From NCBI GenBank assembly GCA_029550525.1, contig JAKPHF010000046.1:171796-235795 (forward strand): DNA of 64,000 bases. The letters run 5' to 3'. The stretch's first letter is position 1, and each line of letters starts with the position of its first letter. The translations under genes were made by a program, and so were the position numbers. This DNA comes from Planctomycetota bacterium. GTDB lineage: Bacteria; Planctomycetota; Phycisphaerae; UBA1845; PWPN01. Shown piece after piece: positions 5,412 through 61,378 of this stretch. Under the pieces are notes generated by a model that had not been told where the DNA came from, made no database searches, and saw only the letters and a list, made by a program, of their open reading frames with translations.

Positions 5412-5499
5412 GAAGACAGGAGACAGAAGTCAGTGGACAGAAGTAGCAACCAGCCCCATGCCCCCTGTTTCTGTCGTCTGTCTCCTGACTCCTATCCCC
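5412..5499. repeat. Heptamer micro-array pair forming an imperfect hairpin directly 3' of trpS
   Basis: Left arm GAAGACA GGAGACA GAAGTCA GTGGACA GAAGTAG (5412-5446). Right arm CTGTTTC TGTCGTC TGTCTCC TGACTCC TATCCCC (5465-5499). CAGGAGACAG (5417-5426) is perfectly complementary to CTGTCTCCTG (5478-5487). The right arm begins at the trpS stop codon. Confidence 0.8.
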
Positions 5500-6469
5500 C
5501 GATGGTCTTCAGTCCGCAGCACTTGCGGACCTCGCGCATGGTCTGTGCCGCGACCTCCCGGGCCCGCCGCCCACCGTCGGCCAGGATGCGTTCGACCTCC
5601 TCGGGATGTCGGGCGAATTCCTCGTACCGCTTGCGGCACGGCCCGAACGTCTCCTCGAAAAGCTCGGCCAGTCGCTTCTTGGCCTCCCCGTAGCCCATGC
5701 CGCCTTTGCGATATCGAGCGTCCCACTCGGCGACTTCGTCCCGCGAGGCCAGCAGCCGCAGCAACGCGAACACGTTGCACGTCTCAGGGTTCTTGGGCTG
5801 ATCCACCGGCGTGGAATCCGTCTTCATGGACATGATCCGCTTGCGGGCCTGGTTGGGCGGCCCGAACAGCTCGATGGTGTTGTCGTAGCTCTTGCTCATC
5901 TTGCGGCCATCGATGCCCGGCACGACCGCCGCTTCCGCACTGATCAACGGCTCGGGCCGAACCAGGACATTGCAGTTGAACGCCTGGTTGAACTTGCCCT
6001 GGATGTCCTGCGCCATCTCGATGTGTTGAGCCTGGTCCTGGCCCACGGGCACGAGGTTAGCCTTGTAAATCAGGATGTCGGCCGCCTGCAGCACGGGGTA
6101 GGCGAACAGTCCGTGATTGGGCGAAAGCCCCTGGGCCACCTTGTCCTTGTAGGAGTGAGCCCGCTGCAGCAGCCCCATCGGCGTGAGGCACGAGAGAATC
6201 CACATCAACTCGGTGACCTCCGGCACGTCCGACTGCCGGAAGAACACCGCTTTGTTCGGGTCGAGTCCCAGGGCGAGATACGTCAGGGCGACCTCGCGCG
6301 TGAACTCCTCGAGCCGCTCGGCCTGATTGATCGTGGTCAGGGCGTGATAGTTGGCGATGAAATAGAAGCATTCATGCTCGCCCTGAAGCTCGATGTGCTT
6401 GCGCAGCGCGCCGAAGTAGTTTCCCAGGTGCAAGCGTCCCGACGGCTGAATACCCGAAAGAATTCTCAT
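5492..6469 (-). CDS. trpS: Tryptophan--tRNA ligase
   Basis: Class I aaRS signatures: GIQPSGRLHLGNYFG (HIGH-like) and KMSKS. Overall TrpS-like sequence, 325 aa. Confidence 0.95.
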   Translation of the reverse strand: MRILSGIQPSGRLHLGNYFGALRKHIELQGEHECFYFIANYHALTTINQAERLEEFTREVALTYLALGLDPNKAVFFRQSDVPEVTELMWILSCLTPMGLLQRAHSYKDKVAQGLSPNHGLFAYPVLQAADILIYKANLVPVGQDQAQHIEMAQDIQGKFNQAFNCNVLVRPEPLISAEAAVVPGIDGRKMSKSYDNTIELFGPPNQARKRIMSMKTDSTPVDQPKNPETCNVFALLRLLASRDEVAEWDARYRKGGMGYGEAKKRLAELFEETFGPCRKRYEEFARHPEEVERILADGGRRAREVAAQTMREVRKCCGLKTIGG

Positions 6470-6840
6470 TCCCGCAACGTCCTCAAGAGCAGCCCATTTC
6501 TTCCGCAGCGGTGGACCGGTCGTTCAGGTGCTCAGGGCATGTGATCCATCCACCGCTACCACAAAAGGCCCCACGTACCCGGACTCCAGCCCGCGAACTG
6601 CGGCCCTGGCGCCGGGATATCAGGCCCCGCCGGAAGCTGGATCAGCCGTCCGGACGCCCGATCATGACCGGCGCTACAAACTGGTACGACCTCACCGGCG
6701 CGACGTCGTCATCGGCCGCCGCCCGCCCGGCAAAAACAGCTCCATACTAACGTGATCATCTTCCGGAGGGTAGGCCGGGCCCCTTCGGGCTTTCGGCCTG
6801 TGACCGTCCTATCATAAGGCGATTATCGAGGAGTTCTGAC

Positions 6841-7287
6841 GTGAGTAACTGGGTCCACAAATACAAACCCGCGGCATCCCGGCGGACGCACGTGCTGGCG
6901 GCCGCGACGCTCTGGACGCTCGTGGGCGCGGGTCTCCTGACGACTGGATTGACCTGGAACCGTTCGAGCCCGGGGCCGTGGCTCGTCGCATTGCTGGTGG
7001 CCGCCGTCGGCGTGGGGCTGCTCAAAGCACACCTGGCCCTTCGCAAGACCGCCGGCCGCATGGTCGATCGCATCTGCGCTCGCGGTGACGGCCGCTGCCT
7101 GGGCGGCTTCCTGTCCTGGCGCATGTGGTTGGTCGCAGTGGCCATGATGTTCTTCGGCCGATTGATCCGCAGCGGCCCCCTTCCCGATGTGCTGGTGGCC
7201 TTCATCTACCAGGCGGTCGGCGTCGCGTTGCTGGCCGGAGCCGTCAGCCTCTGGCGCGCCTACGCTCGCCTCCCGCGCCCCGCCTGA
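6841..7287 (+). CDS. Small integral membrane protein, function unknown
   Basis: GTG start 6 nt after GAGGAG. About four hydrophobic helices (LAAATLWTLVGAGLLTTGL, WLVALLVAAVGVGLL, MWLVAVAMMFFG, AFIYQAVGVALLAGAV). No recognisable family. Confidence 0.6.
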   Translation: MSNWVHKYKPAASRRTHVLAAATLWTLVGAGLLTTGLTWNRSSPGPWLVALLVAAVGVGLLKAHLALRKTAGRMVDRICARGDGRCLGGFLSWRMWLVAVAMMFFGRLIRSGPLPDVLVAFIYQAVGVALLAGAVSLWRAYARLPRPA

Positions 7288-7391
7288 TTACAGGCCCCCA
7301 TTTTCCACCCGGCGCGCAACGACCTTCCGCGGGTCCACACACACCCCGCGCATAGTGCCACATATCGGACCCTGTAGCCACACTTCATCCC

Positions 7392-7419
7392 CTCAAGTCT
7401 CAAGCCTCAGGTCTCAAGC
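7392..7419. repeat. Heptamer tandem array (CTCAAGY) x4
   Basis: CTCAAGT CTCAAGC CTCAGGT CTCAAGC. Intergenic, about 150 nt upstream of the secreted-protein/TadG-like gene pair. Confidence 0.8.
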
Positions 7420-7566
7420 CCAACTTCACCCCATTTACCGCATCTTCCCCAAATTCTCACGTTTTCGCTTGCTTACCGGCACCTTGGATTGCATATCGCT
7501 ATGGTCAAAACAGGCGGGGAAACACGCAGCAGATTTACCGGCCCTTTTTTGGGGGGAGGCAATGTC

Positions 7567-8235
7567 ATGTTATCGGTTCCGGCAAGAACGTTAAGATGGT
7601 CGCTCGTGCTGGCCACGCTGGCGATGCTCGCCGGCCCTGGCACGTTGCGCGCCCAGGATCCCACCGATCCTGCGTCGCCCAAGGTCATCCGAGTGGAAGA
7701 GGATTGGCTGCTATGGGTCGTGCAGCCGAACGGCGCGATCTATTCGCCGCAGTTCCACACCGTCATGTCCCCCCTGCAGGATCTGGACTCCTACTACTTC
7801 CAGATCACCTGGAACTATCGTGAGCTGCCCGAGTTCATGCCGGGCGGGTTCCAGGTGCAAAGCTGGAATGGTGAAGACAACCTGAACCTCCAGAACATCA
7901 ACAACACCGAGTTGAGCCGGGCGGCTGAGCTCATCACCTGGACCCAGGTCATGGAGACCAACGGCACGCAGATCGCCTTCTCGATCATCAACGGCCTCTC
8001 CTCCACCTGGGGCGCGTTCGGCCATCCGGACACGTTGCTGGTCCACAATGGCGCCATTCCCGATCTCAATCGCTATTCGCCTGACGTCTCGGTGGACAAC
8101 TCGTGGATCACCTTCGGCCAGAACCGGGTGTACCTGCTTAAGGTTTACGCCGTCCGATACTACGGTGAGCACGGGTTGCTGTGGGAGGACACCACCAATC
8201 GCGTCGTGTATCAATACGAACAGGTCGACGACTAA
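7567..8235 (+). CDS. Secreted hypothetical protein (first gene of a two-gene unit with the TadG-like gene)
   Basis: Internal ATG at 7567 follows GGGGAGG. Signal peptide MLSVPARTLRWSLVLATLAMLAGPGTLRA. Coding-like composition, no family recognised. Ends 23 nt before the next gene. Confidence 0.65.
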   Translation: MLSVPARTLRWSLVLATLAMLAGPGTLRAQDPTDPASPKVIRVEEDWLLWVVQPNGAIYSPQFHTVMSPLQDLDSYYFQITWNYRELPEFMPGGFQVQSWNGEDNLNLQNINNTELSRAAELITWTQVMETNGTQIAFSIINGLSSTWGAFGHPDTLLVHNGAIPDLNRYSPDVSVDNSWITFGQNRVYLLKVYAVRYYGEHGLLWEDTTNRVVYQYEQVDD

Positions 8236-8258
8236 ACCGGACGCTCGGAGGAAGAGCC

Positions 8259-9473
8259 ATGCGTCATCCGAAACATTTTCGCAGGAGAGGAGCCGCCGCG
8301 GCCGCCGTGGCCGTGACGGGGACCGTGCTGATCGCGTTTGCCGCTTTGGCCATCGACATGGGTGTGTTCTACAACACGCGCATCGAGGCCCAACGCAGTG
8401 CTGACGCCGGTGCGCTCGCCGGTGCCTGGAAGCTTCTGGGCGACGAACGGGTCAAAGGCGCAACAGGAGTCGCCACGCTGGTCGACCAGGCCCGCCAAGC
8501 CGCGGCCGAGGTCGCGGGACTGAACGAAGTGTTCAAGGCCGGACCGCAGGTCGATCTGAACGTCGCGAACGCGGCCGGCGGAGACATCATCCTCGGTCGG
8601 CTCGACAACCCGTCCAATCTGGCCGAGCCGCTCGCCACCGCCGTCGACCCGTCCGAGTTCAACTCGGTCAGCGTCCTCGTGCGGCGCGACAACGTCCGTA
8701 ACGGCCCCATCCCCTTCTTCTTCGGCCAAATCTTTGGCTTCAGGAACAAGGATATGTCGGCCCGAGCCGTCGCCACCGCGCGGAACACCATCGCCGGCTA
8801 CCGGGTCACCAACAAGACCGGCAACGCTCAACTGCTGCCCTTCACCGTGCATGTCGATGCCTGGAATGGCCTGCTCAACGGCACGGTCACCACGGGTGAC
8901 AACTTCCGCTATGACCCCGTCACCAAGACGGTCTCGCCGGGCAGTGACGGCATCTACGAAATCAATATGTACCCGGGCGCCGGCAACGGACAGGGTAACG
9001 GCAAGAAGCCCAAGGAGAGCAGCGACGGTCAGCTCCCGCCCGGCAACTTCGGCACGGTGGACATCGGAGCCGCCAACAACAGCACCGCCGACATCTCCCG
9101 CCAGATTCGCTACGGCATCAGCGCCGCGGATCTCGCACACCTCGGCGGGGAACTGCGGTTCAACAATGACGGGAAGATCTATTTGAACGGCGACACCGGC
9201 CTGAGCGCCGCGGTCAAGGACGACCTCGAGGCCATCAAGGGACAACCGCGGGCCATCCCGCTGTTCACCCACGTGAGCGGGCCCGGCAACAACGCCACCT
9301 ACACCATCGTGGCCTTCGCGGGTATCCGCGTCATGGATGTGAAGCTCACCGGCTCCATGAGCAGCAAGGCTGTCATCGTTCAGCCCGCGGTGGTGGTCGA
9401 TGACGCCGTCATCGTTGAAGACGTCAACGTGCCGAGCTATTTCGTCTATTATCCTCCTTCTCTCGTGCGCTGA
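8259..9473 (+). CDS. TadG-like (Flp/Tad pilus assembly TadE/G-like N-terminal domain) protein
   Basis: ATG at 8259 follows GGAGGA. The N-terminus RRGAAAAAVAVTGTVLIAFAALAIDMGVFYNTRIEAQRSADAGALAGA matches the TadG-type membrane anchor plus conserved helix. A rho-independent-like terminator follows. Confidence 0.7.
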   Translation: MRHPKHFRRRGAAAAAVAVTGTVLIAFAALAIDMGVFYNTRIEAQRSADAGALAGAWKLLGDERVKGATGVATLVDQARQAAAEVAGLNEVFKAGPQVDLNVANAAGGDIILGRLDNPSNLAEPLATAVDPSEFNSVSVLVRRDNVRNGPIPFFFGQIFGFRNKDMSARAVATARNTIAGYRVTNKTGNAQLLPFTVHVDAWNGLLNGTVTTGDNFRYDPVTKTVSPGSDGIYEINMYPGAGNGQGNGKKPKESSDGQLPPGNFGTVDIGAANNSTADISRQIRYGISAADLAHLGGELRFNNDGKIYLNGDTGLSAAVKDDLEAIKGQPRAIPLFTHVSGPGNNATYTIVAFAGIRVMDVKLTGSMSSKAVIVQPAVVVDDAVIVEDVNVPSYFVYYPPSLVR

Positions 9474-9501
9474 GACGCGGCACTAGCCGTGCCACGAATC
9501 C

Positions 9502-9556
9502 CACAGCCGCCGCAGCCGCCGGTGACCTGACCGTCGCCGCGCGGCTGTGTCTTTTT
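9502..9556 (+). terminator. Rho-independent-type terminator after the TadG-like gene
   Basis: Stem CACAGCCGC (9502-9510) / GCGGCTGTG (9541-9549) followed by TCTTTTT. Confidence 0.55.
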
Positions 9557-9565
9557 CAGCCGGGA

Positions 9566-10705
9566 TCACACCCGCTCGAACGGCTCGAACAACCGTTTGT
9601 ACTCGTCCTGACAGAAACGGTCGGTCATGCCCGCGATGTAGTCGCAGACCACGCGATGAGCGCCTTGCTCGGGAATGCGGGCGGCGAAACGTGGAGGCAG
9701 CATGCGGGGCTCGGCCAGGTAGGCCGCAAACAACTGCCGGATGAACCGGTCGGCCTTGGCGTCCATGCGAATGAGCAGCGGATGACGGTAGACCCGCTCG
9801 AACAGGAACGTCTCGAGCTCGCCAAGACGCGACTCCATGCTCGTCGAAAACGCGACCAGCGGCTGTCCGCATTGCCGCACGTCGTCCACGGTCTCGACCC
9901 GGGCCGCGGCGATGCGGGCTCGCGACTCGGCCACCAGGTCGTCGAGCATCATCTGCTCGAGCCTGTCGAGCACGGGCCGACGGATCGCACCGAGTGGAAG
10001 GTCCGGATACTGCCGGCGTATGTCACCCGCCGCCTCCTGCCACAACTGGATCTCGTTCAGATCCTGCTCGGTGATCAGCCCGGGTTCGAGCGAATCCTCG
10101 AGATCGTGGCAGTCATACGCGATCCGGTCGGCGATGTTGGCAATTTGGCCCTCGATGGGAGCCTGCGTGCCGTCGGCCAGCGGATGCGAGCCGGGCTTGT
10201 CATAGATGGTCGAATGCTTGGCCAGTGACTCGCGCACCTCGTAGCTGAGATTCAGCCCTCGAAACGGCGGATACGGGTGTTCGAGATACTCGATGACCCG
10301 CAGCGACTGGCTGTTGTGCTCGAACCCGCCGTAACTGCTCATCAGCTCCTTCAGCGCCACCTCGCCGGCATGGCCGAACGGCGGATGGCCCAGGTCGTGC
10401 GTCAAAGCGATCAGCTCGCCCACCGACACGTTCACCTGCAGGGCCGTGCACAACCGCCGGGCCACGCTGGCCACCTCCAGCGTGTGCGTCAGTCGCGTGC
10501 GATAGTGGTCGTGCACGCCGGTGACGAATACTTGCGTCTTGTACTCCAGCCGGCGAAACGCCGCCGCGTGCAGCACGCGCTGGCGATCGAGCGCGAACGG
10601 ATCGACCATACGCGGCAGTTGCTCGGGATGAGCCCGCCCTCGCGAATTCTCGGCCGTCACGGCGTAAGGTTTCATCTCAACCGCGCCTCTGGTCATGCAG
10701 CTCAC
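9566..10705 (-). CDS. dgt: dGTP triphosphohydrolase-like HD-domain protein
   Basis: HD motifs YRTRLTHTLEVASVAR and HDLGHPPFGHAGE, C-terminal MTDRF. The GTG at 10705 overlaps the upstream stop as GTGA. Alternative ATGs lie at 10696 and 10675. Confidence 0.85.
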   Translation of the reverse strand: MSCMTRGAVEMKPYAVTAENSRGRAHPEQLPRMVDPFALDRQRVLHAAAFRRLEYKTQVFVTGVHDHYRTRLTHTLEVASVARRLCTALQVNVSVGELIALTHDLGHPPFGHAGEVALKELMSSYGGFEHNSQSLRVIEYLEHPYPPFRGLNLSYEVRESLAKHSTIYDKPGSHPLADGTQAPIEGQIANIADRIAYDCHDLEDSLEPGLITEQDLNEIQLWQEAAGDIRRQYPDLPLGAIRRPVLDRLEQMMLDDLVAESRARIAAARVETVDDVRQCGQPLVAFSTSMESRLGELETFLFERVYRHPLLIRMDAKADRFIRQLFAAYLAEPRMLPPRFAARIPEQGAHRVVCDYIAGMTDRFCQDEYKRLFEPFERV

Positions 10706-11571
10706 GCGAACAACCGGCGCACGTATTCGAGATTCTTCTTCGTATCAGCCACCACGTCATGGCTTGGGCTCGGCGTCTCCAGAACGATCCAACCCTCGTA
10801 GCCGATCTTCCGGATGGCTGCCACCGTCTTCGGCCAATCCACCTTGCCGCTGCCGTCCTCGAGATAGGGTGTGTCCTTGAAATGGATTTGGCAGATGCGC
10901 TCGCGTCCCAGCGTCTCCAACGCGGCGACAGGATCGTGACCGGCATCGGCCATGTTCTTCACGTCGTAGTACACCTGCACGAACTTGGACTTCACCGCAT
11001 CGAGGATCCGCAGGTGATCCTCCGCCGAGAGATAGCTCTCCACACCGAGCACGACACCGGCCTTCTCGGCCCGCGGCGCCAGTTCCGCCAGGACGTCGAT
11101 TGTCCGCCGCATGTCCTCGGCATTCGTGCCCTTCAGTTCCCCCTTGCCGAAAAAGGCGAGCAACATTTTGTTCACCTTCATGCGGCGGGCGACCTCGATG
11201 GCATCCGCCACCCACAAGGCGGCCCGCGGCTCGGACATCAGCGGCACGTGGTTCAACTCGCCCAAGGCCAGCGACGGAATGGCCATGCCCTGGTCGCGGG
11301 CGGCCTGCAGGTACTCCGCCTGCACCTCCTCGCGGCGCAGCCACATGTTGTTCTCGCGCGTGCCCACGCTCACCTCGACGCCGTCCAGGCCGATTTGCCG
11401 GGCCAGCGACATCGCCGACGGATTCATCTGGCCCAGCGACCAATCGCACATGCCGATCTTCGGCACGGTCGATCGCGAGCCCGCCGGCGCGGCGCTGAGG
11501 AGTCGGGCCGTGCCCAGAACGCTGAAGGTCGAAACCGTACCGGCGAGAAATTGCCTCCGCGTGGGTCGCAT
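10702..11571 (-). CDS. Sugar phosphate isomerase/epimerase (xylose isomerase-like TIM barrel) with a TAT signal
   Basis: N-terminus MRPTRRQFLAGTVSTF (twin-arginine motif). Typical AP-endonuclease-2/xylose-isomerase-like body ending in QIHFKD...GWIVLE. Confidence 0.75.
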   Translation of the reverse strand: MRPTRRQFLAGTVSTFSVLGTARLLSAAPAGSRSTVPKIGMCDWSLGQMNPSAMSLARQIGLDGVEVSVGTRENNMWLRREEVQAEYLQAARDQGMAIPSLALGELNHVPLMSEPRAALWVADAIEVARRMKVNKMLLAFFGKGELKGTNAEDMRRTIDVLAELAPRAEKAGVVLGVESYLSAEDHLRILDAVKSKFVQVYYDVKNMADAGHDPVAALETLGRERICQIHFKDTPYLEDGSGKVDWPKTVAAIRKIGYEGWIVLETPSPSHDVVADTKKNLEYVRRLFA

Positions 11572-16946: not shown

Positions 16947-16985
16947 ACCTGGCCGCGCCCAAACGGAACTGGACAAGAACGAAAA

Positions 16986-17026
16986 AGCCCCGGGTAACCT
17001 ACCGCCCGGGGCTTTCGTGTTTTTGT
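16986..17026. terminator. Bidirectional rho-independent terminator between spoVG and the convergent gene
   Basis: AAAAAGCCCCGGG-taacctaccg-CCCGGGGCTTTCGTGTTTTTG: a 9-bp GC stem with an A-run upstream and a T-run downstream. Confidence 0.8.
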
Positions 17027-17034: not shown

Positions 17035-17069
17035 GCTTACAGCTTAGAGCTTATAGCTTACAGCTCATG
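17035..17069. repeat. AGCT-core heptamer array x5 abutting a stop codon
   Basis: Plus strand GCTTACA GCTTAGA GCTTATA GCTTACA GCTCATG. In the sense of the minus-strand gene 17065..18102 it reads TGA-GCTGTA AGCTATA AGCTCTA AGCTGTA AGC, with the stop codon inside the first unit. Confidence 0.85.
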
Positions 17070-18102
17070 ATGACGACGTCGCCGCCTGACGCATGGTGAT
17101 CTCCGCTTCGGTCTTGAAGCCCGCGCGGATACGCAGAATGTCGATGCGCTCGGATACTTCTTGCGCCATCCGGCTGTTCGGGAATTCCTGGCGAATCTGC
17201 AGCCCGATCTCCAAGGCGTCGCGCCATCGATTCTCCGACACTGCCAACCCGAACTGCACGCCCAGATTCAGCAACCGCGCCTTGAAGACGCCACGAGCGG
17301 AGTCCTGCAGGTTCTGAGCTTCCTCGCGCGTGAGGTACTGGTCCAGCTCCGTCAGGATCTCGATACCCTGGTCGATCTCGTTCCGCGCCACCGCCTCGTT
17401 CCAGCGAGCCAGCAACGCCTGCTTCTGCGCCTCGCGGCGGCGTTCCAGTTCCTTGGGCAGGTTCAACACGCGCTCGTGCCGGGGAAACAGCTTGACGAGC
17501 CGGTCGATTTCCGCCCGGGCTCGCTCCCAGCGATGCTCCGACAGGATCTTTTCGATATGCGTCAGAGCCTGGTTGATCTTCTCTTCGATGGTCATCTCCC
17601 GGGCCGCGGCGAGCTCCTGGCGAAGCGTCTCGGCCTCCTGCTTGTAGCCGAACCGCCGCTCCATTTCGTTCACCAGGTAGGTAGCCGCTTCCCAATCGCC
17701 GCTGTACATCTCCTCGCGGATGGCCTGCCGCAGCGCCTCCCGCTCGCTCTCGCGGTGCGTGATGGACCGCACGGCATCGGAGATCTGGCTGTTGTCGGCC
17801 ACGATCTTGACCAGCGGTGCCATTCGCTGCACCACTTCCTGCATCTCCAGCAGCACGTTGTGAATGCGGTTGACGTTGGCCTCGGTCTTGGCCGTCACGA
17901 CCATGATCGCATTGAGAATCAGCGACAGCGAGACCAGGAGCAAACCCGCGCCCAGAGCCACCACTCCGCCGAGCCGAGCCTCCGGCATGAACAGAAGGAT
18001 CAGGCCGGCGATCAGCAACACACCACCCAGAACGCACGCGGCGACGGCGGTGAACAGCGTCGTCTGAAGCGGGCCACGATTGCGCAGAGGCATGTCAGAC
18101 AC
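17065..18102 (-). CDS. Membrane-anchored helical-repeat protein, function unknown
   Basis: GTG start 8 nt after GAGGAG. Two N-terminal TM helices followed by about 250 aa of charged alpha-helical, TPR-like sequence. Confidence 0.65.
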   Translation of the reverse strand: MSDMPLRNRGPLQTTLFTAVAACVLGGVLLIAGLILLFMPEARLGGVVALGAGLLLVSLSLILNAIMVVTAKTEANVNRIHNVLLEMQEVVQRMAPLVKIVADNSQISDAVRSITHRESEREALRQAIREEMYSGDWEAATYLVNEMERRFGYKQEAETLRQELAAAREMTIEEKINQALTHIEKILSEHRWERARAEIDRLVKLFPRHERVLNLPKELERRREAQKQALLARWNEAVARNEIDQGIEILTELDQYLTREEAQNLQDSARGVFKARLLNLGVQFGLAVSENRWRDALEIGLQIRQEFPNSRMAQEVSERIDILRIRAGFKTEAEITMRQAATSSS

Positions 18103-32331: not shown

Positions 32332-32359
32332 GATGAGCTATGAGCTGTGAGCTATGAGC
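32332..32359. repeat. AGCT-core heptamer array x4, ending 1 nt upstream of the thiE start codon
   Basis: GATGAGC TATGAGC TGTGAGC TATGAGC on the plus strand. It occupies the position where a thiE SD would be expected. Confidence 0.85.
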
Positions 32360-32461
32360 CAGACATTGGACGCACATCCGAGAATTTATGGCGTGCGCAA
32401 TTAAAACGAACTCGATCGTACACGAAACACGCACCATCCGGCGAGTGGCTGAGATCCGATG

Positions 32462-32517
32462 GCTGACAGCTGAGAGCTCATAGCTGATAGCTGATAGCTG
32501 ATAGCTGACAGCTTCAA
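32462..32517. repeat. AGCT-core heptamer array x8 overlapping the ribBA stop codon
   Basis: GCTGACA GCTGAGA GCTCATA GCTGATA GCTGATA GCTGATA GCTGACA GCTTCAA. The ribBA stop (32514-32516) lies in the last unit. GCTCATAGCT is complementary to AGCTATGAGC in the 32332 array. Confidence 0.9.
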
Positions 32518-33743: not shown

Positions 33744-34090
33744 TCTATGAATCCTCGCTTGTGGCGGGCTCTCCCGCGGGCCGATCGGCAGCCCCACAGT
33801 GGATTACGCTAGGGTCCAATCCGGGCGTGCTGAGGTCTGCAAGACCCGCGGTCGGGCCGAGGCGGAGAGAGCACACGTGGGCATTGTAACCCATTCCGCC
33901 CCGCGCCGGAACTGCCCGGGCCTCCGGCCACCGAAAGACAGACCGCCGAGTGGCGGTCGCCGGGTGACAGGCCAGCGGGTGGCGGACGCGCCCCGCCATC
34001 GCTACCATGAAAATTGAGGGGCCCTCCGCCGCTGTCGCGGTCACCGGGGCGGCTGGCTCCAACTCTGTCTCCCGAAAGGAATTTACGACC

Positions 34091-35395
34091 ATGCACCTGC
34101 CGAGGTTGGCGCTGCGGCCGGCGTTTTGTCTTCTTTCTTGCGCGGCATTCCTGGTTTTGGTCATTGGGTGTCCTCCCGCCGACGATTCCGACGGCGACGG
34201 CGTGCCCAACTCCATCGACAACTGCCCGCTGGCCCCCAATCCCGACCAGGCTGACGTGAACGGCAACGGACTGGGCGATGCATGCGATCCCGAGACGCTG
34301 GACAGCGACGCGGACGGCATCGTGGACGCCGCCGACAACTGCCCGGCCGCTTTCAACCCCAACCAGGTGGATTCGGACAATGACGGGTTGGGCGACGCTT
34401 GCGACCCCGACCTGATCGATTCCGACGGCGACGGATACGTGGACGCCCTGGACAACTGCCCCAGTGTGGCCAATCCGACGCAGGCCGACATCGACAACGA
34501 CGGCATCGGCGACGCCTGCGATTCAGACTTCGTGGACACCGACAACGACGGCATCATGGACTCGCTCGACAACTGCCCCACGGTCGCCAATCCCAACCAG
34601 GCTGACGCCGACAACGATGGCGTGGGCGACGCGTGCGATCCCGACCTGATCGACACCGACGGCGACGGCGTCGTCGACGCCCTCGACAACTGCCCCACCG
34701 TGGCCAATCCCACACAAACCGACGCTGACGGCGACGATGTCGGTAACGCCTGCGACAATTGCCCCACCGTCTTTAACCCGACGCAAGCCGACGCCGACAA
34801 CGACGGCATCGGCGACGCCTGCGACGCCGTCACGGGAACCGACACGGACGGCGACGGAGTCCCTGACGCCACGGACAACTGTCCCAATGTCGCCAACGCG
34901 AATCAGCTGGACACGGACGGCGATGGCCGCGGCAACGCCTGCGACAATTGCCCTACCGTCGCCAACGCCAACCAGCAGGATACCGACGGCGACGGTGTTG
35001 GAGACGTTTGCGACAACTGTCCCACCGTCGCCAACCCCAATCAGGCGGATACCAACCAGAACGGCATCGGCGATGCCTGCGAAAGCGGAACGGTGCTGGT
35101 CAACCTGCCCAACGCTCCCAGTGCACCGAACGCAACTTTTACGCCCAGCGCCGTCGGGCGGCTGATCACCATCATCGTCAGGACCACACCTCCGGTCGGC
35201 CAAGTGCAAATTGTGGTCACGAATTTCCAGAACGGCCCTGAACAGACGGTCGCGCAGCTGTTGACGCCGACCTCTCCCGGCTTCTCGACGCTGTCGTTCA
35301 GAAGCACGGCCGCCATCGTGCACAATGTCAGGACCAACGAGTTGGTCGGCGGCTTCCCGCCGAGCCAATATCAACTGATCGTCACCGAGCAGTAA
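34091..35395 (+). CDS. Lipoprotein made of ~13 thrombospondin type-3 (Ca-binding) repeats plus a C-terminal beta-rich domain
   Basis: ATG at 34091 follows GAAAGGAA. Signal with lipobox AFLVLVIGC. Tandem units D.DGDG..D..DNCP.V.NP.Q.D.D.DG.GD.CD. Confidence 0.85.
34181..35080 (+). repeat. Intragenic tandem repeats encoding TSP3 units (~69-72 nt period)
   Basis: Recurrent GACAACTGCCC...AACCC..CAGGC.GAC...GACGGC.TCGGCGACGC.TGCGA blocks throughout the gene. Confidence 0.8.
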
Positions 35396-35403
35396 CCCCA
35401 GCC

Positions 35404-35428
35404 GGGGGGCGGGCGTCTCGCCCGCCTC
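35404..35428. repeat. 25-nt GC hairpin element, copy 1 (REP-like, 9 nt after the stop of the TSP3 lipoprotein gene)
   Basis: GGGGGGCGGGCGTCTCGCCCGCCTC, with stem GGCGGGCG/CGCCCGCC and loop TCT. Identical to 61302-61326. Confidence 0.85.
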
Positions 35429-35536: not shown

Positions 35537-35557
35537 GCTCAAAGCTCATAGCTACAA
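35537..35557. repeat. AGCT-core heptamer array x3 next to a minus-strand terminator
   Basis: GCTCAAA GCTCATA GCTACAA, 5 nt from the 35563-35598 hairpin. Confidence 0.7.
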
Positions 35558-35562
35558 ACAAA

Positions 35563-35598
35563 GAATCCGCCGGCGCCTTCATAGACGCCGGCGGATTC
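35563..35598 (-). terminator. Strong hairpin with a U-rich tail on the minus strand only
   Basis: 13-bp perfect stem GAATCCGCCGGCG / CGCCGGCGGATTC with a 10-nt loop. On the minus strand it is followed by TTTGTTTG; on the plus strand by CATGCGGG. Confidence 0.6.
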
Positions 35599-36098
35599 CA
35601 TGCGGGCTCACGCCCACACGGCCCGTCACAGGTCCGATGGAGGCAGACCCGTCCCCGACTGCTTCCCATTGAGCCGATGGCCAAACCGCCATACGCCGAA
35701 AGACTCGCCCGGCCGTCGCGCTTGGCACGGGGGATCGATCCGGCCAGTCGGACCGCGCCAATGGAGGCACATGTTATCGCAGACGGAGGCCGTTTTCACC
35801 GGGCGGTCCTACGAAGATAAGGTCGGTGGAGCCGCTGAGATGAACCGGGGAGATTGCCGACGCTGGCGCAGGGTCGGCCGACCGAATGAAGCGTGCCACA
35901 AGCACGAAGCGTGTCAGAATGAATTTCCGCGCTGAATGAGACTTCAGCCGGTTGACCCGGCGACCGGTCCGGCTCATGATGGCGATGCGGACGGCAACCG
36001 CGGCAGTCTTCGCGCAGACCACGCGGAATCGGCGTAGCCGCTTGTGTCCATGAGATTATGCGATCCTTGGGAACCGGCCGGCACGCCGGGCGTCTAAC

Positions 36099-38408: not shown

Positions 38409-38443
38409 GCTCAGAGCTCATAGCTCACAGCTGATAGCTGCCG
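38409..38443. repeat. AGCT-core heptamer array x5, 1 nt from a stop codon
   Basis: GCTCAGA GCTCATA GCTCACA GCTGATA GCTGCCG. The stop of gene 38445..39479 lies at 38445-38447. Confidence 0.85.
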
Positions 38444-39753: not shown

Positions 39754-39809
39754 AGCTGTGCGAGCTGAAAGCCGATAGCCGACAGCTGACAGCTGATTGC
39801 CGATAGCTT
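39754..39809. repeat. AGCT/AGCC-core heptamer array x8, 2 nt from a stop codon
   Basis: CAGCTGT GCGAGCT GAAAGCC GATAGCC GACAGCT GACAGCT GATTGCC GATAGCT. The stop of the HMA gene lies at 39812-39814. Confidence 0.85.
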
Positions 39810-39811
39810 TC

Positions 39812-40658: not shown

Positions 40659-40686
40659 TAGCTATGAGCTATAGGAAGCTCTAAGT
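40659..40686. repeat. Short degenerate AGCT-core heptamer array (2-3 units)
   Basis: TTAGCTATG AGCTATA GGAAGCT CTAAG, located between the CMD pseudogene start and the tRNA-Ala flank. Confidence 0.5.
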
Positions 40687-40737
40687 TACAAAAGATTAAC
40701 GTGGCGAGCGAACGCTCAACTACCTGACACAACTGTT

Positions 40738-40861: not shown

Positions 40862-40934
<73 letters not shown>

Positions 40935-45200: not shown

Positions 45201-46588
45201 TCGCCGTGTCCGCTGCGGGCAACACCATCTCCGCCCGGGGCGAGCTGCCATTGAGCCTCAACGATGGCCAGGCTGCCGGCCGGACGGCCCTGCAAGTTGC
45301 CGCCGACCTGCCGCGTCTGGAGGAGTTGCGAAAGCTCGTGCCGGCCGCCCCCGTCGAGACGCTGTCGGGCCGTACGCAGGTGGAGTTCGCGCTGGCGAGC
45401 GACGGACGCTCCGTGGAAATCGACGACGGGCACATCGAATTCGATGATGTTCGGGTTGGCTCGGCAGCACGGCCGCTCCAACTGACCGGATCGGCACAGC
45501 TCGACGGGACCCGCGGGCTCAACCTCGAGCGCTTGCAATGGAGCTGGGGACGATCGGCGGGAACGTTCTCCGGCCTGTTCGCCTCACAGGCCGGGCAGTA
45601 CGACGTGCTCCTGGGCATCGGCGGTGACGAACTGTACATCGAGGATCTGCTGGACTGTGTCGATGAGTTCATGGCCGGCTTCAAGACGCCGGAGCAGCAG
45701 GCTTCGCCATCGCCTGCAAAGCCCGGCCAGGATCCCGTCCAACTCGTCATGGACCTGCTTCGCCGAACCAAGGCGAACGTCACTGCCCACGTAAAGACCG
45801 CTGTAACGCCGCTGCCGCTGGGCATGAGAGCGACCACCGACGCGGGCTGGCAGGAGTTGACCATCGACCGTGGTCGCATCGAGTTGCAGTTCGGCTGCCT
45901 GGTGGACGGAGGCTGCGTGGACGGCCGCGTCACCGCCGACCTCACCACCGACGATCCGCAGTATCGCCTGACGTACACCGCCGATCGAATCGCCCCCGGC
46001 AGCCTCGTCGATGCTTACCTGCGGCGAACCTTCCCCGGCATGACCGCGACCGGCCCGCTGACGCTCATCGACGAGTCAATCCAAAAGCTCAGGCCTGCCC
46101 CGGGCGAACCCAACTACGAGGTGGGCAAGGGCGAACTGATCATCGACGGCGGCGTCGTCTCGGGCCGGGCTGCCCCCCTGTGGATGGCTCGCATCTTCCC
46201 CAACCTGAACCTGGCCAGCTTCGAGTTCTCGCGTATGCACAGTTGGTTCGACAAGTCGGTTGACGGGCGCGTTCAGCACCAGATGATCTATCACGGGGCT
46301 TACTACAACGTGTACATGATCGGCTGGAGCAACCCGGAGGGCTACTTCGACTACGAGGTCGGCATCGACTTCCTCGCCGGCCTGGAGAGCGAGTACTGGG
46401 CCAACACCGGTCAGGGGCGGGTACCCCTATTCAGCAAGACCGGCCAAGTCCGCCCTGACGGCTCGCTCGCAGACGAAACCGTCACGTTCGTCTCGTTCCG
46501 TCGCGTCCTCGAAACGCTCTTCGTCCGAAACAATCCCGTCGTCACCGCCTATCACGCCGTCCGGAAGCGGGCGATGGCGAATGAATAG
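42215..46588 (+). CDS. Giant (~1457 aa) membrane-anchored AsmA/TamB-like envelope protein. The functional label is tentative
   Basis: Internal ATG at 42215. N-terminal anchor WAIRAGAALLLTFALGYLALPLW followed by AsmA-like N-terminal sequence (IRLQLQSQLSLDLGTPVQIDRLRAGWLEGVVIEGLTV) and more than 1300 aa of beta-rich sequence. Confidence 0.7.
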   Translation: MTPALSPPLAAAAAAHRRRWAIRAGAALLLTFALGYLALPLWLPTEYIRLQLQSQLSLDLGTPVQIDRLRAGWLEGVVIEGLTVVDNTSRDGEAFARIGRIRCDFSPFTLLAGKRVRVLEFFDPQIWIHIDETGALRLPQFNDQQSPRLPSLNYAVNGLTCHVLTPGVSQSFRIDRLDLQLDPPSGLLHLASVTRVQRPRSDTDEPAAGRLDFDANIRIPRLKATERLNGTFEAEWTDLALNDLPVPLISHVPVEQVDGITSGRVIIRTHPDLGIDYAVTIAMDGVRIMRPDLNRPAQVPDAELSCRGRWNPNSGLVVMDELTCETPSIRLEAGSPGEPACRLEENDEHPAELHLRGTIKDWHGLRQEIPEVDHFARLAGVEIEGSAQFTLTAIRGLREDFLAVTLDANDSDCTIRGGGTEVVRAGEGVAKHLELEIHRERTTGRIRQPGFSLTLGDTTLSASGELVLPAGYGDPTGAEDATLATDRLAEILPTLAGQLHVRCNDAGKLRQLLPVLATLRELDELSGPMEFSATLEPRETCTRLHVSASLASESAARYGDRFYKRRGRPLNLRAVAEIPFTARGRIDPLNLQLRHGTGMLELASRNGSLDYQFDLRETLTGFALVAAGGRWQADLRVTAIEDLLDLMPTAASALKIGGLNFLAGGIRADLRTEFSYRPGDAVIRSNAHVIADGIALDLDRRFTKRAGERMSIDLAHSVRHASQQFETAWDATLSTSAGKLSASWTTCEADPSEPVSRFEMLAARADIYQLADCLPAIPDVAERLGLRGAGKLTVELHRLALGEWTTSTARFDATQADLADIRRIGWRKPPGVPVQGEVAWTSVPETTGSGRRTYHITKGTGRLAGATIDTVEGSITLNPDALRAFDLSHNLGTIELTGSIDFDQSFDALHPRLGEYVRAHELAGRLDWRLETSIASDSISLGGACDASGLQFKTAWNDRSPWFIEKPADYPLAASCVVSLRPPANGHPLSITLHDVAVSAAGNTISARGELPLSLNDGQAAGRTALQVAADLPRLEELRKLVPAAPVETLSGRTQVEFALASDGRSVEIDDGHIEFDDVRVGSAARPLQLTGSAQLDGTRGLNLERLQWSWGRSAGTFSGLFASQAGQYDVLLGIGGDELYIEDLLDCVDEFMAGFKTPEQQASPSPAKPGQDPVQLVMDLLRRTKANVTAHVKTAVTPLPLGMRATTDAGWQELTIDRGRIELQFGCLVDGGCVDGRVTADLTTDDPQYRLTYTADRIAPGSLVDAYLRRTFPGMTATGPLTLIDESIQKLRPAPGEPNYEVGKGELIIDGGVVSGRAAPLWMARIFPNLNLASFEFSRMHSWFDKSVDGRVQHQMIYHGAYYNVYMIGWSNPEGYFDYEVGIDFLAGLESEYWANTGQGRVPLFSKTGQVRPDGSLADETVTFVSFRRVLETLFVRNNPVVTAYHAVRKRAMANE

Positions 46589-46630
46589 CTGTCAGCTGTG
46601 AGCTATGAGCTGTGAGCTGTGAGCTATCAG
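46587..46630. repeat. AGCT-core heptamer array x6 overlapping the stop codon of the AsmA-like gene
   Basis: AGCTGTC AGCTGTG AGCTATG AGCTGTG AGCTGTG AGCTATC AG. The TAG stop (46586-46588) overlaps the first unit. TGA triplets at 46599, 46606, 46613 and 46620 cover all three frames. Confidence 0.9.
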
Positions 46631-52375: not shown

Positions 52376-52398
52376 CAGACCCGAATAGCGACAGAAAT

Positions 52399-52520
52399 CC
52401 GAATGTCGAAGCCGAATGTCGAATGAAGCCCGAATGCCGAAGCCTAAGTCAATAACAGCGTCCGGCCACAGCTCATAACTTCATTCGTCATTCGTCATTC
52501 GGACTTCGACATTTCATTCG
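52399..52520. repeat. Inverted pair of CGAATG-type heptamer arrays (~120-bp imperfect hairpin) 3' of the hybrid kinase gene
   Basis: Left arm CCGAATG TCGAAGC CGAATG TCGAATG AAGCC CGAATG CCGAAGCC (52399-52444). Right arm TCATTCG x3, then GACTTCG ACATTTC ATTCG (52481-52520), which is the reverse complement of the left-arm unit. The loop contains one GCTCATA unit. Confidence 0.85.
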
Positions 52521-53076
52521 TGCGGCTTCAACACCGAGCAGGCCGTGCGATTGATTTTGTACGGGCCGGCGTTCATGCGAACGTACCAGGTCGTCACTGC
52601 TGGGGACGTCCGGGTTCCAGCAGTGCACGTGCAGAAGCTTGCCCGCCGGCGGACGCATCGAGACGGTCATGCCCTCGATGCTTTCGAGTGTCAAATCGTC
52701 CAGCGTGTCGCCGGGCTTCAGTGCCGCGTGTTCGGCGGCATACAGCCCGCTGCACAGCCCGAGACCGACAAGGCTGCCCCACCGGCAGACGAATCGCCAG
52801 GCGTTACGCCCGCCGGTCCAACCACCGGTCGCTCGCCAGATGGACGTGTCAGACCTTTCCGAATGGTTTGATACTCACCGCGCCGTTTGAGCAGCAACTC
52901 GTCTCCCTAGACACGTTCCAGGGACAGAAGGTTTCGGTTCCGCGTTCTATTTCTACAGAATTTTACCCAGAAGGGCAAGAAGAAGGCCTGCCGGAATCGA
53001 GATCCCGACAGGCCTGTCGCTCTATCCCTGATTGACGGGGGCCGGCTCGTGGACCGGGCCGAGACTACACCCCGAG

Positions 53077-58223: not shown

Positions 58224-58259
58224 TTCGCCCCAACCGCGCGGCAGTGATGCCGGTGCCAG

Positions 58260-58520
58260 ATGCCGGAGCGCAACACGATGGTCACGCGCGCACGCCCCCC
58301 CCCCGCACACATTCGATGATTTCCTCGAGTTTGGAGCATTGATCCCGACGAGAAGCGGGCGACCTTCCTGATCAGAGAGCCCGACGGGTTTGTCGATGCA
58401 ACTCCCCAGTACGGCACGTTTGCCAGCCGCGTGCTCCCGGGTCTGAAGCTGGAAACGCAGTGGCTTTGGCAACGACCGTTGCCGTCAACGCTGGGCATCA
58501 TCACCTCGCTGCTTGCCTGA
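58260..58520 (+). pseudogene. Remnant of a Uma2-family (DUF820) endonuclease gene
   Basis: The frame-0 reading FPRVWSIDPDEKRATFLIREPDGFVDATPQYGTFASRVLPGLKLETQWLW resembles the conserved C-terminal half of Uma2 proteins (..EYWIVDP....v.v......Y.........S.vLPGl.l....lf). It is preceded by an in-frame TGA (58317) and a C10 tract. There is no room for the N-terminal ~100 aa. Confidence 0.4.
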
Positions 58521-59239
58521 ACAACTCGCCATCCCTGACCTGAATGCGCGTGGAGACGCGGCATAGTAGCACGGATAGGACCGCTGCCACGGATGAACAA
58601 AGAAGAAGATATCGGTCTGCACTTCTGAGCCATGCCACTTCTCGTGTGCACCATAAGTGTCCGAAATACGTCACACCATCAGGGATCCACTGATGCATTG
58701 CGTAAGGGTTTAGATTTCCGCGAAAACCTGAGCGATCAGACGGCAATTCCTCCGTTTTCGTGGCTGTAGGCTGCTTTTGCTGAAGATTGGCCGTTTGATC
58801 AGCCGAGCCATGCATGGCCCGCTATAGTATTTCAAAGGGCAGCACTGGAAGCGGTTTCCTTCGCAAAACGTTGCTGCGGCTTCACTTACGACCTGGATTG
58901 GTTGTCTGGGCCATCAGGTGCCACTATGATCGGTTGGGTCCAGTCTGACAGCTCATCGATCCGCCTGGTTCAAGGCGTGCGACGCGCTACACGCGTCCCT
59001 GGCGTTTTGTGCAGGGGCCGTGGTTTGCCGTGCGCGGATCCGTCCTGAACGACTGAACCCGCCTTCAGACGATAACCGGCCGGAACCGGCAGTCCGGCGG
59101 GAGAGAGACTTTCGGCCCGCACTCTTGTCTGCATCGCAGGCATGAGCGTGCAGCCGGCCAGACAAGACGGGTCGTCGCGACGACGTTTCACGGCCGCGGC
59201 CGCCCAGTTCGAAACTGGGACACGAACGAGGTGTACACA

Positions 59240-61300
59240 ATGGCGGACAGAAAAACGATTTTGTCCATTGTCGATTCGACCATCGATCAGAAGCAATTCC
59301 TGAGCCATCACTGGGAAGGCTCATTCAACGACTATCTGGAACTGGTCACGCAAAACCCCGGCGTGGCCCGTAACGCGTTCCAGCGGATCTACGACATGGT
59401 CCTGTACTTCGGGTTCGAGCGGTACACGTACCTCAAGCAGGATTACGTGCGATACCACTTCTTCTCGGATCCGATCGAAAACGGCAAGGATGCCATTTTC
59501 GGGCTGGACGCACCGCTCATGCAGCTCGTCGATTTCTTCAAATCGGCGGCGCACGGCTACGGGACCGACCGCCGCATTCTCCTGCTTCACGGTCCGGTCG
59601 GCTCCAGCAAGAGCACCATCACCCGCCTGCTCAAGAAGGGCCTGGAGTACTACTCCCGGCTCGACGAAGGCGCGTTGTACACCTTCGCCTGGAAACTCGA
59701 GGGCGAGGACGGCCACAAGCACGTCTACCCCTGCCCCATGCACGAAGAGCCGCTCAAGCTGATTCCGGCTGAGGCCCGGCCCGCCGTGCTCAAGACGCTC
59801 AACGCCGACCTGCCGGAAGGCCGTGAGATCCGCATCGAGGGCGATCTCGACCCGTTCTGCCGCAAGAACTTCGAGGATCTGCTCATCAAGTACAACGGCG
59901 ACTGGCGACGGGTCATGGATCACGTGGTGGTTCGCCGCGTCATCCTGTCGGAGAAAGATCGTCGCGGCATCGGCACGTTCCAGCCCAAGGACGAGAAGAA
60001 TCAGGACAGCACCGAACTCACCGGCGACATCAATTATCGCAAGATCGCCGAGTACGGTTCGGACAGCGATCCGCGAGCTTTCAACTTCGACGGCGAACTC
60101 AACATCGCCAATCGCGGGCTCATCGAGTTCATCGAGGTGCTCAAGCTCGACGTGGCGTTTCTCTACGACCTGCTGGGAGCTTCGCAGGAACACGTCATCA
60201 AGCCGAAGAAGTTCGCCCAGACGCCCATCGACGAGGTGATCATCGGGCACACCAATGAACCGGAGTACAAGAAACTCCAGAACAACGAACTCATGGAAGC
60301 GTTCCGCGACCGGACCATCAAGATCGACGTGCCCTACAACACCCGCTTGTCCGACGAAATCCGCATTTACGAGAAGGATTTCGGCAAGCACCGGGTCCGC
60401 GGCGTCCACATCGCGCCTCACACCATCGAGGTGGCGGCCATGTGGGCCGTTCTCACTCGGCTCGAGCCCCCCAAGAAGGCCGGCCTGACGCTCATGCAGA
60501 AGCTCAAGCTGTACAACGGCAAGAGCATCCCCGGCTACACCGAGGACAGCATCCGTGAACTGCGGGCGGAAGCCCCCCGTGAGGGCATGCAGGGCATCAG
60601 CCCGCGATACATTCAGGACAAAATCTCCAACTGCCTGGTCAGCGACACCGCCATGCAGGACCGGACCATCAACCCGTTCATGCTGCTGAATGAGCTGGAG
60701 GCCGGCCTGAGCCATCACAGCCTGATCAGCGACGAGGAGATCAAAAAGCATTACCGGGAGTTGCTCAACGTGGTACGCGAGGAATACGAGGACATCGTCA
60801 AGACGGAGGTCCAGCGGGCCATCAGCGCCGACGAGGACGCCATCAAGCGCCTCTGCGCCAACTACATCGAGAACGTGCGGGCCTACACCCAGCACGAGAA
60901 GGTCCGCAACAAGTACACCGGCCGCGACGAGGAGCCCGACGAGCGCCTCATGCGAAGCATCGAGGAGAAGATCGACATCCCGGATTCCCGGAAGGACGAC
61001 TTCCGGCAGGAGATCATGAACTACATCGGCTCGCTCGCCCTGGACGGCAAGAAGTTCGAGTACCAGACCAACGCCCGGCTGCAAAAGGCTTTGGAACTCA
61101 AGCTGTTCGAGGATCAGCGGGATACAATCAAGCTCAAGAACGTCGTCAGCGGAGTCGTCGATGATGAGACGCAGGCCAAGATCGACGTGGTCAAGCAGCG
61201 GCTCATCAAGTACTTCGGCTACAACGAGACCAGTGCCACCGACGTGCTCAACTTCGTGGCCAGCATCTTCGCCCGCGGCGACAGCAAGCAGGAGGACTAA
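59240..61300 (+). CDS. prkA: PrkA family serine protein kinase (AAA+ type)
   Basis: ATG at 59240 follows GAGG. N-terminus [15 protein letters not shown]...[11 protein letters not shown], Walker [14 protein letters not shown], and a length (~686 aa) typical of PrkA/YeaG. Confidence 0.9.
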
Positions 61301-61301
61301 C

Positions 61302-61326
61302 GGGGGGCGGGCGTCTCGCCCGCCTC
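61302..61326. repeat. 25-nt GC hairpin element, copy 2 (2 nt after the prkA stop)
   Basis: Identical 25-mer GGGGGGCGGGCGTCTCGCCCGCCTC. Confidence 0.85.
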
Positions 61327-61354
61327 AATCCCCGTGCTGACCGCGGACAACGGG

Positions 61355-61378
61355 CAACTGACCACTGACAACTGACAG
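61355..61378. repeat. Heptamer array (CAACTGA CCACTGA CAACTGA) just upstream of the yeaH start
   Basis: Three exact-period units followed by CAGGT-ATG. The unit ACTGACA is one mismatch from the GCTGACA units seen elsewhere. Confidence 0.75.

Follow-up and report, generated by a model that had tools for sequence, protein, structure and literature searches.

Short tandem arrays of heptanucleotides lie at 11 sites in the non-coding DNA of the stretch analyzed here: 64,000 nt from an uncultured Planctomycetota bacterium of the class Phycisphaerae (GenBank assembly GCA_029550525.1, contig JAKPHF010000046.1, positions 171,796 to 235,795), henceforth ‘the window’. The arrays hold three to eight units each, and their units fall into at least five families, unrelated in sequence and all of period 7. 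We think it probable that they are heptanucleotide simple-sequence repeats (SSRs), similar to the short tandemly repeated repetitive (STRR) sequences of cyanobacteria; that slippage makes them; and that they are confined to where we find them by the cost they would impose on coding sequences and promoters. Some, perhaps, are also kept as hairpins or spacers. The marks of the ‘long SSR’ class are present: head-to-tail copies of a unit of 5–11 nt, longer or commoner than chance would give, predominance of 7, instability of unit number, and sporadic distribution among genomes.

The sequence-only reading that drew attention to these arrays held that the period is 7 whatever the unit, that the arrays avoid coding sequence, and that there is about one every 5 kb. 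All three points have held up. Tandem Repeats Finder (TRF) reports arrays of period 7, or of its 14- and 21-nt multiples, starting at 5411, 7392, 17035, 32333, 32458, 38409 and 46587, with others at 39763–39808, 52400, 52481 and 61346. When each lag from 4 to 15 was scanned in 18-nt windows, with a cut-off of at least 15 self-matches, nine arrays emerged at lag 7, none at lags 4–6 or 9–11, and one, in coding DNA, at lag 8; the excess over periods 6 and 8 is real and specific, and in the window the finding withstands the refutation that the sequence-only reading had itself set, a period 7 no commoner than those two. Lag 14 gave two arrays (5411 and 7389). Block shuffles predict ~0.02 arrays at lag 7 where nine were observed, and an alternative scoring scheme gave 6 versus 0 for period 7. 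On a gene map rebuilt from the calls that accompany public assemblies of this organism, 83.7% of the window is coding and ~16% non-coding, and every one of the 11 sites falls in the latter (P ~1e-7 to 1e-9), a density of one per ~5.8 kb. Other particulars need amending. Where at least 12 sites with three to eight tandem copies had been claimed, the sequences do read as described, but the sites number 11, and it is the period that is exact, not the copies, which are degenerate at set positions. Two of the arrays listed, 35537 and 40659, have only two or three units in the window, although they are longer in other strains; and 5412 and 5470, 32333 and 32458, and 52399 and 52481, which had been taken for independent arrays, are inverted pairs, instead. 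TRF also returns a weak period-7 run of CCGGCGG at 2981–3011 (4.3 copies, 80% match, with indels), in the 3′-terminal part of a gene called as hypothetical, 255 aa long (2254–3021); it did not clear the lag scan, and GC-rich low complexity may explain it.

Eight sites belong to one unit family, with the consensus AGCT-n-A-n. Among 39 units phased on the core, the first position is A in 34 and G in 5; G and C are invariant at the second and third (39 each); T occupies the fourth in 37; and A occupies the sixth in 34. Positions 1–4 and 6 are thus nearly fixed, while position 5 (C16, G14, T6, A3) and position 7 (T17, C14, A4, G4) are free. Since AGCT is a palindrome, the two strands of such an array differ only in whether A or T stands at the center of the 3-nt spacer, and both orientations are found. 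The other families are ACTGACM (61346), CGAATGN/TCATTCG (52399/52481), GRAGWCA/TGWCNCC (5412/5470) and CTCAAGY (7392). Outside the arrays AGCT is neither avoided nor enriched, with 211 occurrences in the window against 213 expected, which disposes of it as a restriction-type palindrome. CTAG, by comparison, is about four-fold under-represented in the window as a whole (11 observed, 43 expected from trinucleotides), and other 4-nt palindromes are near expectation. We considered, too, that the arrays might serve as stop codons in all frames, for the T-N-A of AGCT-N-A-N is a stop on one or other strand and a 7-nt period cycles through the frames. This was ruled out: the strand with the stops is often antisense to the flanking genes (32458, 39754 and 7392), and in the GRAGWCA and CTCAAGY families stops on the sense strand are few or absent.

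The arrays gain and lose units. We compared the window with 26 locus extracts of the same species, taken from NCBI, JGI and ENA assemblies that derive from different samples and assemblers. These are 99.8–99.99% identical to the window with the exception of one, L270, which is 98.1% identical, largely through a 239-bp deletion. All of the arrays recur in same-species assemblies, and because these assemblies are independent the arrays are not artefacts, a possibility that the sequence-only reading had raised. Indels were surveyed in ten strains over a 21-kb stretch (21251–42217) in which arrays make up 222 of 20,967 bp, or ~1%. Ten distinct events were found, four of them in arrays (P = 2.5e-6). 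At 39781, seven strains have an additional 14 bp (two AGCTGAC units); at 32480, strain L269 lacks 7 bp (one AGCTGAT unit); at 35537, strain L266 has an additional 7 bp (one GCTCAAA unit); and at 40676, strain L263 has a 6-unit GCTNTAA array, from which 11 bp are missing in the window allele. Whole-unit changes occur where identical units adjoin; the arrays at 5412, 7392 and 17035, which have only non-identical units, are invariant in eight strains. This is the signature of slipped-strand mispairing. The suggestion of an active generating mechanism is therefore borne out, as is that of copy-number polymorphism: strains 99.9% identical differ by whole units, and four arrays are polymorphic.

Two observations on the same strains deserve mention. 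One metagenome-assembled genome (MAG) from NCBI, L261 (GCA_035349915.1), has a scaffold gap of 116 Ns exactly inside the AGCTGAC array at 39781; heptamer arrays break or confuse metagenome assemblies, and are potential strain markers. And the gene for a thrombospondin type-3 (TSP3) repeat protein (34007–35395) contains coding tandem repeats of 69, 117 and 234 bp (34272–35082) that vary among strains as well; the deletion in L270 lies here, and gene calls differ in other strains.

The arrays are distributed unevenly with respect to genes. The window has 47 spacers: 25 lie between co-directional genes, 11 between convergent and 11 between divergent ones. Arrays are found in seven of the co-directional spacers and four of the convergent, but in none of the divergent (P = 0.016 by length), and so every array-bearing spacer has one gene or more turning its 3′ end towards it and consists of 3′ untranslated or intercistronic DNA. 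At seven sites a stop codon is no more than 25 nt away, and the stop codons at 17065, 32514, 46588 and 5492 are touched or overlapped by the array itself. Three of the 11 end 2–10 nt short of start codons that lack a Shine–Dalgarno (SD) sequence: those of thiE (32330), yeaH (61381) and panE (5401). With respect to transcription, AGCT arrays of the window read sense in three cases and antisense in two; across phyla the figures are 20 and 23. Orientation is thus random, which for the AGCT family speaks against a binding site on one strand of RNA, and on this ground a strand-specific RNA element was rejected. The neighboring genes are ordinary: trpS, panE, spoVG, ribBA, a ThiD2–ThiE fusion, an HMA protein, histidine kinases and the prkA–yeaH–spoVR operon. 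Individual sites are listed in Table 1. The array at 17035 lies ~20 nt past the spoVG terminator hairpin (16984–17015); that at 46587 has a 21-bp super-period (95% match by TRF) and is identical in two further assemblies; and the 52399 arm is a mixture of 6- and 7-nt units.

Table 1. Heptamer arrays of the window, with the evidence for each and its setting
Array	Position	Strand	Evidence	Setting and strain comparison
GRAGWCA, arm 1 of inverted pair	5412..5444	-	TRF, period 14	Ends 10 nt upstream of panE start codon (5401); invariant in 8 strains
TGWCNCC, arm 2, partner of 5412 arm	5470..5499	-	Scored as inverted pair	Overlaps trpS stop codon (5492)
CTCAAGY, ~4 units	7392..7418	+	TRF, lag scan	Co-directional spacer 7288–7566; invariant in 8 strains
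AGCTTAN, 5 units	17035..17065	+	TRF, lag scan	Abuts stop codon of minus-strand gene 17065–18102
AGCTCAY, 4 units	32333..32359	-	TRF, lag scan	2 nt upstream of thiE-fusion start codon; inverted partner of 32458–32513
AGCTSAN, 8 units	32458..32513	+	TRF, lag scan	Abuts ribBA stop codon (32514); strain-polymorphic
AGCTCAN, short, 3 units	35537..35557	+	Sequence	Adjoins 17-bp-stem hairpin 35562–35599; strain-polymorphic
AGCTSAN, 5 units	38409..38439	+	TRF, lag scan	Convergent spacer, 5 nt from DUF4922 gene stop codon
AGCYGAN, ~7 units	39754..39808	+	TRF, lag scan	3 nt past HMA gene stop codon; strain-polymorphic
AGCT, decayed	40659..40690	-	Sequence	Between tRNA 40862–40934 and HMA gene
AGCTSAY, 6 units (minus-strand reading)	46587..46625	-	TRF, lag scan	Convergent spacer; overlaps stop codon of 1457-aa DUF748 gene
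CGAATGN/CGAAG, arm of inverted pair	52399..52441	+	TRF	23 nt past PAS histidine kinase gene stop codon; same in 6 strains
TCATTCG, partner of 52399 arm	52481..52520	+	TRF, lag scan	
ACTGACM, ~4.5 units	61346..61377	+	TRF, lag scan	3 nt upstream of yeaH (DUF444) start codon, in prkA–yeaH–spoVR operon

The three inverted pairs, 5412/5470, 32333/32458 and 52399/52481, are predicted to form imperfect hairpins of 30–45 bp. In the transcribed sense, the minus strand, 5402–5505 has a predicted fold of -43.8 kcal/mol (z = -3.2), with UUUUU after it; 52385–52530 folds at -49.1 kcal/mol (z = -4.9), and the whole ribBA–thiE spacer at -67.9 kcal/mol (z = -3.4). Canonical intrinsic terminators were ruled out as a general explanation, since a scan for them returned counts close to those of shuffles; strong hairpins adjoin arrays at two places only, 16984–17015 and 35562–35599. 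No known RNA family accounts for the arrays, either: Rfam 15 over the window, which answers the proposal that the units be compared with it, gave no match at gathering threshold other than the tRNA at 40862–40934. An identical GC-rich hairpin of 26 nt (CGGGGGGCGGGCGTCTCGCCCGCCTC) is present twice, at 35403–35428, 7 nt past the stop codon of the TSP3-repeat gene, and at 61301–61326, directly past that of prkA. It may be a small element of this genome, of the repetitive extragenic palindrome (REP) or terminator kind.

Arrays of this sort are sporadic, and cluster in few genomes. The closest genomes to that of the window are Phycisphaerae/Planctomycetota MAGs, with ~57% amino-acid identity in a lineage-specific protein for the nearest species representatives. 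Among 53 Phycisphaerae loci (869 kb), heptamer arrays were found in three, and so the trait is not one that GC-rich planctomycetes have as a group. No arrays occur in relatives in the spacer downstream of the 665-aa gene, and the thiE-fusion protein, used to scan metagenomes, brought up no relatives. One of the Phycisphaerae loci, from a Phycisphaeraceae MAG (CAZBRD010000004.1; L235, 12841–19940), has six arrays in 22 kb with the units TTTAGGY, which resembles the plant telomere repeat, and GTAAYTN. In a background set of 80 ribBA-anchored loci from diverse phyla (1.27 Mb; the ribBA genome scan yielded distant phyla only), 36 lag-7 arrays were confined to 13 loci. A Bacteroidia MAG (JAUHWY010000039.1; L198) has 13 GAATGRT/ATCATTC arrays in 15 kb, and Geobacter sp. 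UBA9964 (L132) has five of GTTCAAN/TTGAACN, inverted pairs among them. The GAATG/CATTC motif recurs in the window (52399–52520) and in another locus, L239.

When 185,579 species genomes were scanned for (AGCTNAN)4AGCT, at least 119 loci matched. The matches listed include Acidobacteriota, Bacteroidota, Cyanobacteriota, Planctomycetota, Omnitrophota, Gemmatimonadota, Chloroflexota and others, and many are mixed in their units as those of the window are. These listed loci, 830 kb in all, also hold at least 127 lag-7 arrays that are not AGCT; lag 6 has 4 arrays there, lag 5 has 3 and lag 8 has 31. Because this DNA was picked solely for the presence of an AGCT array, the period must belong to the genome, whatever the unit, and in many phyla. 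Across loci, neighboring arrays no more than 200 nt apart are inverted in 38 cases and direct in 19, and AGCT arrays across phyla lie in 15 convergent versus six divergent spacers. The AGCT unit is less singular than this might suggest. In viral contigs AGCT gave 110 stretches, and the control cores AGTC and TGCA gave 70 and 45, which weakens the case for AGCT as a uniquely cross-phylum unit. Position 7 is mixed in 66% of AGCT arrays, versus 21–25% of control arrays. Two IMG/VR contigs, L332 and L297, have 13 and nine AGCT-n-A-n arrays within ~12–14 kb; they are either contigs correctly classified as viral or host fragments mis-binned as such.

At one site the history of an array can be followed beyond the species. 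Between prkA and yeaH, relatives L210 and L220 have 25 nt and no array; the spacer of L215 is 133 nt long and holds an inverted GTCAGTN/ACTGACN pair, which is found again in L209, where the spacer measures 196 nt. The window has 80 nt, in which only the ACTGACM arm is left, together with the GC-rich hairpin. Since the flanking proteins of the window, L215 and L209 are 80–91% identical, the ACTGACM family has persisted in this spacer over divergence of genus or family rank, while copy number and arrangement turned over. Where the spacer is short, as at the prkA–yeaH junctions of L210 and L220, the end of prkA itself (…GAGGAGGAATAA) provides an SD-like GGAGGA, which precedes the start of yeaH by ~20 nt. 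The window (59240–64000) differs, as do L215 and L209: there the repeat spacer separates the end of prkA from yeaH, which begins right after a G-poor heptamer array and has no SD.

We picture the origin of the arrays as follows. Wherever at least two identical units adjoin, slipped-strand mispairing during replication or repair would add or remove 7-nt units. Coding DNA would exclude arrays, for a step of 7 nt shifts the reading frame, and spacers that hold only promoters would exclude them, too, for promoter geometry would be disturbed. What sets the period would be the genome's mutational machinery rather than any one sequence, because unrelated unit families share it, both here and in heptamer-rich genomes of many phyla. 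Selection might preserve some arrays, for the structure that inverted pairs or the self-complementary AGCT core confer; these probably act as extragenic hairpins of the REP type, or as unstructured spacers. Barriers at the 3′ ends of transcripts, insulation between cistrons, and SD-free leaders are candidate roles, as are the 3′ end formation, RNA stability and protein binding that the sequence-only reading put forward. By analogy, a hairpin or spacer function like that of REP elements is our best guess.

Several observations sit awkwardly with this account. Slippage combined with neutral point mutation does not explain why positions 1–4 and 6 of AGCT-n-A-n are fixed and 5 and 7 free, nor why mixed units turn up within its arrays at about three times the rate of TGCA and AGTC control arrays. 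The 11-bp difference at 40676 is no multiple of 7. For single AGCT arrays the predicted structure is weak (z = -0.2 to -2.2), a mere ladder of AGCU helices 4 bp long, and folding predicts no structure at 7392 (z = +0.4) or 61346. Nor does slippage account for the number 7 itself. The proposal of Mrázek, Guo and Shah (2007), as relayed in later papers, is that ~7 nt is the stretch in contact with DNA polymerase, so that slippage by this length is favored (PMC4679880, PMC4692102); this is published speculation rather than a result.

Might a protein dictate the period, instead? If the arrays were binding sites of a trans-acting factor with a 7-nt register, selection for binding could set both the period and the conserved positions, and several observations speak for this: the conserved AGCT core with its wobble at 5 and 7; the occurrence of the degenerate unit in many phyla, more numerous and more mixed than the control cores; arrays right beside start or stop codons; and the ACTGACM family kept at the orthologous prkA–yeaH site. 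The factor might be a single-strand binder (cold-shock domain, S1 or RNA recognition motif), as has been proposed for TAACTGA repeats (PMC4679880), or a DNA-binding protein that recognizes AGCT-n-A. Yet one genome houses at least five unrelated unit families, AGCT arrays run in either orientation, copy number drifts between strains under no visible constraint, most relatives are array-free and orthologous spacers can be empty (L210, L220), and control cores also yield many arrays. We consider such a factor unlikely. A fixed core with two wobble positions, random orientation, and avoidance of divergent spacers with inverted pairing argue, together, against strand-specific RNA recognition and for a cause at the level of DNA or structure. 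A related idea, which we likewise find unlikely, is that dedicated, patchily inherited machinery—a repeat-generating enzyme, or a nucleic-acid binder with a 7-nt footprint—lies behind both the period and AGCT-n-A-n. The fixed core with its wobble, arrays in excess of two control cores, three-fold greater mixing and frequent inverted pairing can be cited for it. If true, the presence or absence of this machinery would explain why some genomes are heptamer-rich and others heptamer-free.

The inverted pairs invite comparison with small mobile elements, or with palindromic elements resembling REPs or miniature inverted-repeat transposable elements (MITEs), inserted into spacers and with the heptamers as their internal structure. 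The window has three such pairs, other genomes have many, the empty and filled prkA–yeaH spacers look like the two states of an insertion site, and the arrays, like REPs, are limited to extragenic, probably transcribed DNA. This is very unlikely to be the answer, however. Array-bearing spacers have nothing in common beyond the repeat units, for which reason a MITE or other shared element was rejected, and the unit families vary from one site to another; the window sequences show neither terminal inverted repeats nor target duplications nor GTAG/CGTC heads; most AGCT arrays are single; and strains differ by whole-unit steps, not by presence or absence of an element. No transposase appears among the Pfam annotations of called genes in the public assemblies that cover most of the window, though no test aimed at REP-associated tyrosine transposases (RAYTs) was made. 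We rate a shade lower again the prospect that the arrays are contingency loci, whose copy number switches or tunes the expression of the adjacent gene by phase variation. Copy number is indeed polymorphic among near-identical strains, and three arrays are within 10 nt of a start codon, but the polymorphic arrays lie past stop codons rather than in promoters or reading frames, no array occupies a divergent promoter spacer, and the neighbors are housekeeping genes (trpS, panE, ribBA, thiE, the prkA operon, histidine kinases), not genes for surface proteins or antigens; the Xanthomonas repeats gave a likewise negative outcome (PMC4692102). To chance matches, or to errors of assembly or polishing, we assign next to no probability. 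The gap inside the 39754 array of one MAG shows that arrays are hard to assemble, but shuffles and recurrence in independent assemblies of different samples refute such an origin.

As a match to a known class of heptamer repeat, the arrays make Planctomycetota a new phylum-level host. We found no description of such arrays in the literature on Planctomycetota or Phycisphaerae, in agreement with the sequence-only reading. The planctomycete Isosphaera has been described as rich in G-patterns, like Nostoc (PMC4060949). The many near-identical strains, from separate metagenomes, with gain and loss of units at defined arrays, amount to a natural experiment.

STRR sequences have been known in cyanobacteria since 1990, and genome surveys have reported an excess of heptanucleotide repeats since 2007. 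The classical STRR units are CCCCAGT, TTGGTCA and CAACAGT. The window arrays were aptly called STRR-like, for they are tandem heptamers, extragenic, dispersed at high density, and of several unit families per genome with one period. They differ in that none of the canonical units is present, the host is not a cyanobacterium, and the arrays of the window are shorter, at 3–8 units. The sequence-only reading knew of no comparable class but STRR; the long SSRs of Mrázek and the repeats of Xanthomonas, Nostoc, Beggiatoaceae and Chloroflexus are comparable as well (PMC4692102, PMC4679880, PMC6749651).

According to summaries of the 2007 survey by Mrázek, heptanucleotides are the most abundant class of long SSR in most bacterial genomes, and are sporadic in distribution (PMC4679880, PMC4692102). 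As these summaries describe them, the long SSRs and our arrays agree in that 7-nt units outnumber other lengths, most are intergenic, they are sporadic, they change length by whole units, and slippage is the explanation offered. The window adds a host among the Phycisphaerae and Planctomycetota, the fixed and free positions of AGCT-n-A-n, and frequent inverted pairing, features in which it departs from those accounts. The GGGAATC repeats of Xanthomonas and GGGGAYT repeats of Nostoc are biased to non-coding DNA, lie near the ends of open reading frames (ORFs), are depleted between divergent ORFs, include inverted repeats, and have no link to any class of gene (PMC4692102); the arrays of the window share the non-coding bias, the proximity to ORF ends, the depletion in divergent spacers, some inverted pairs, and the lack of a gene-class link. 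In Xanthomonas, moreover, repeats persist at orthologous sites with turnover of copy number, the same pattern as at prkA–yeaH (PMC4692102). Those units are G-rich and form G-quadruplexes (PMC4692102), unlike those of the window, which have no G-tracts.

TAACTGA direct repeats, in two to six copies, occur in marine Beggiatoaceae and in some Cyanobacteria and Bacteroidetes (PMC4679880). They, too, are heptamer arrays in spacers, some directly before SD-less start codons, as at 32333, 61346 and 5412 here. That system has one dominant unit, however, whose copies are nearly always direct repeats and read in the sense direction ahead of start codons, whereas the window lacks the TAACTGA unit and has several families, in both orientations and mostly beside stop codons, with three of 11 sites within 10 nt of a start. 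The (GATAGRA)n satellites of Chloroflexus aurantiacus are likewise heptamers with a degenerate position and many loci (PMC6749651); their unit and phylum are different, and they were described as satellites, without positional analysis. REPs and bacterial interspersed mosaic elements (BIMEs) are built differently (PMC3733652): the window arrays have no REP consensus, there is no GTAG or CGTC head in the arms, and the stems are made of tandem heptamers. They are alike in that they lie in spacers that face the 3′ end of a gene and are probably transcribed, and are rare between divergent genes. As to hairpins, the three inverted pairs are predicted to fold strongly, the other sites weakly or not at all; and it is REPs and BIMEs, by this analogy, that the inverted pairs most resemble in how they may work.

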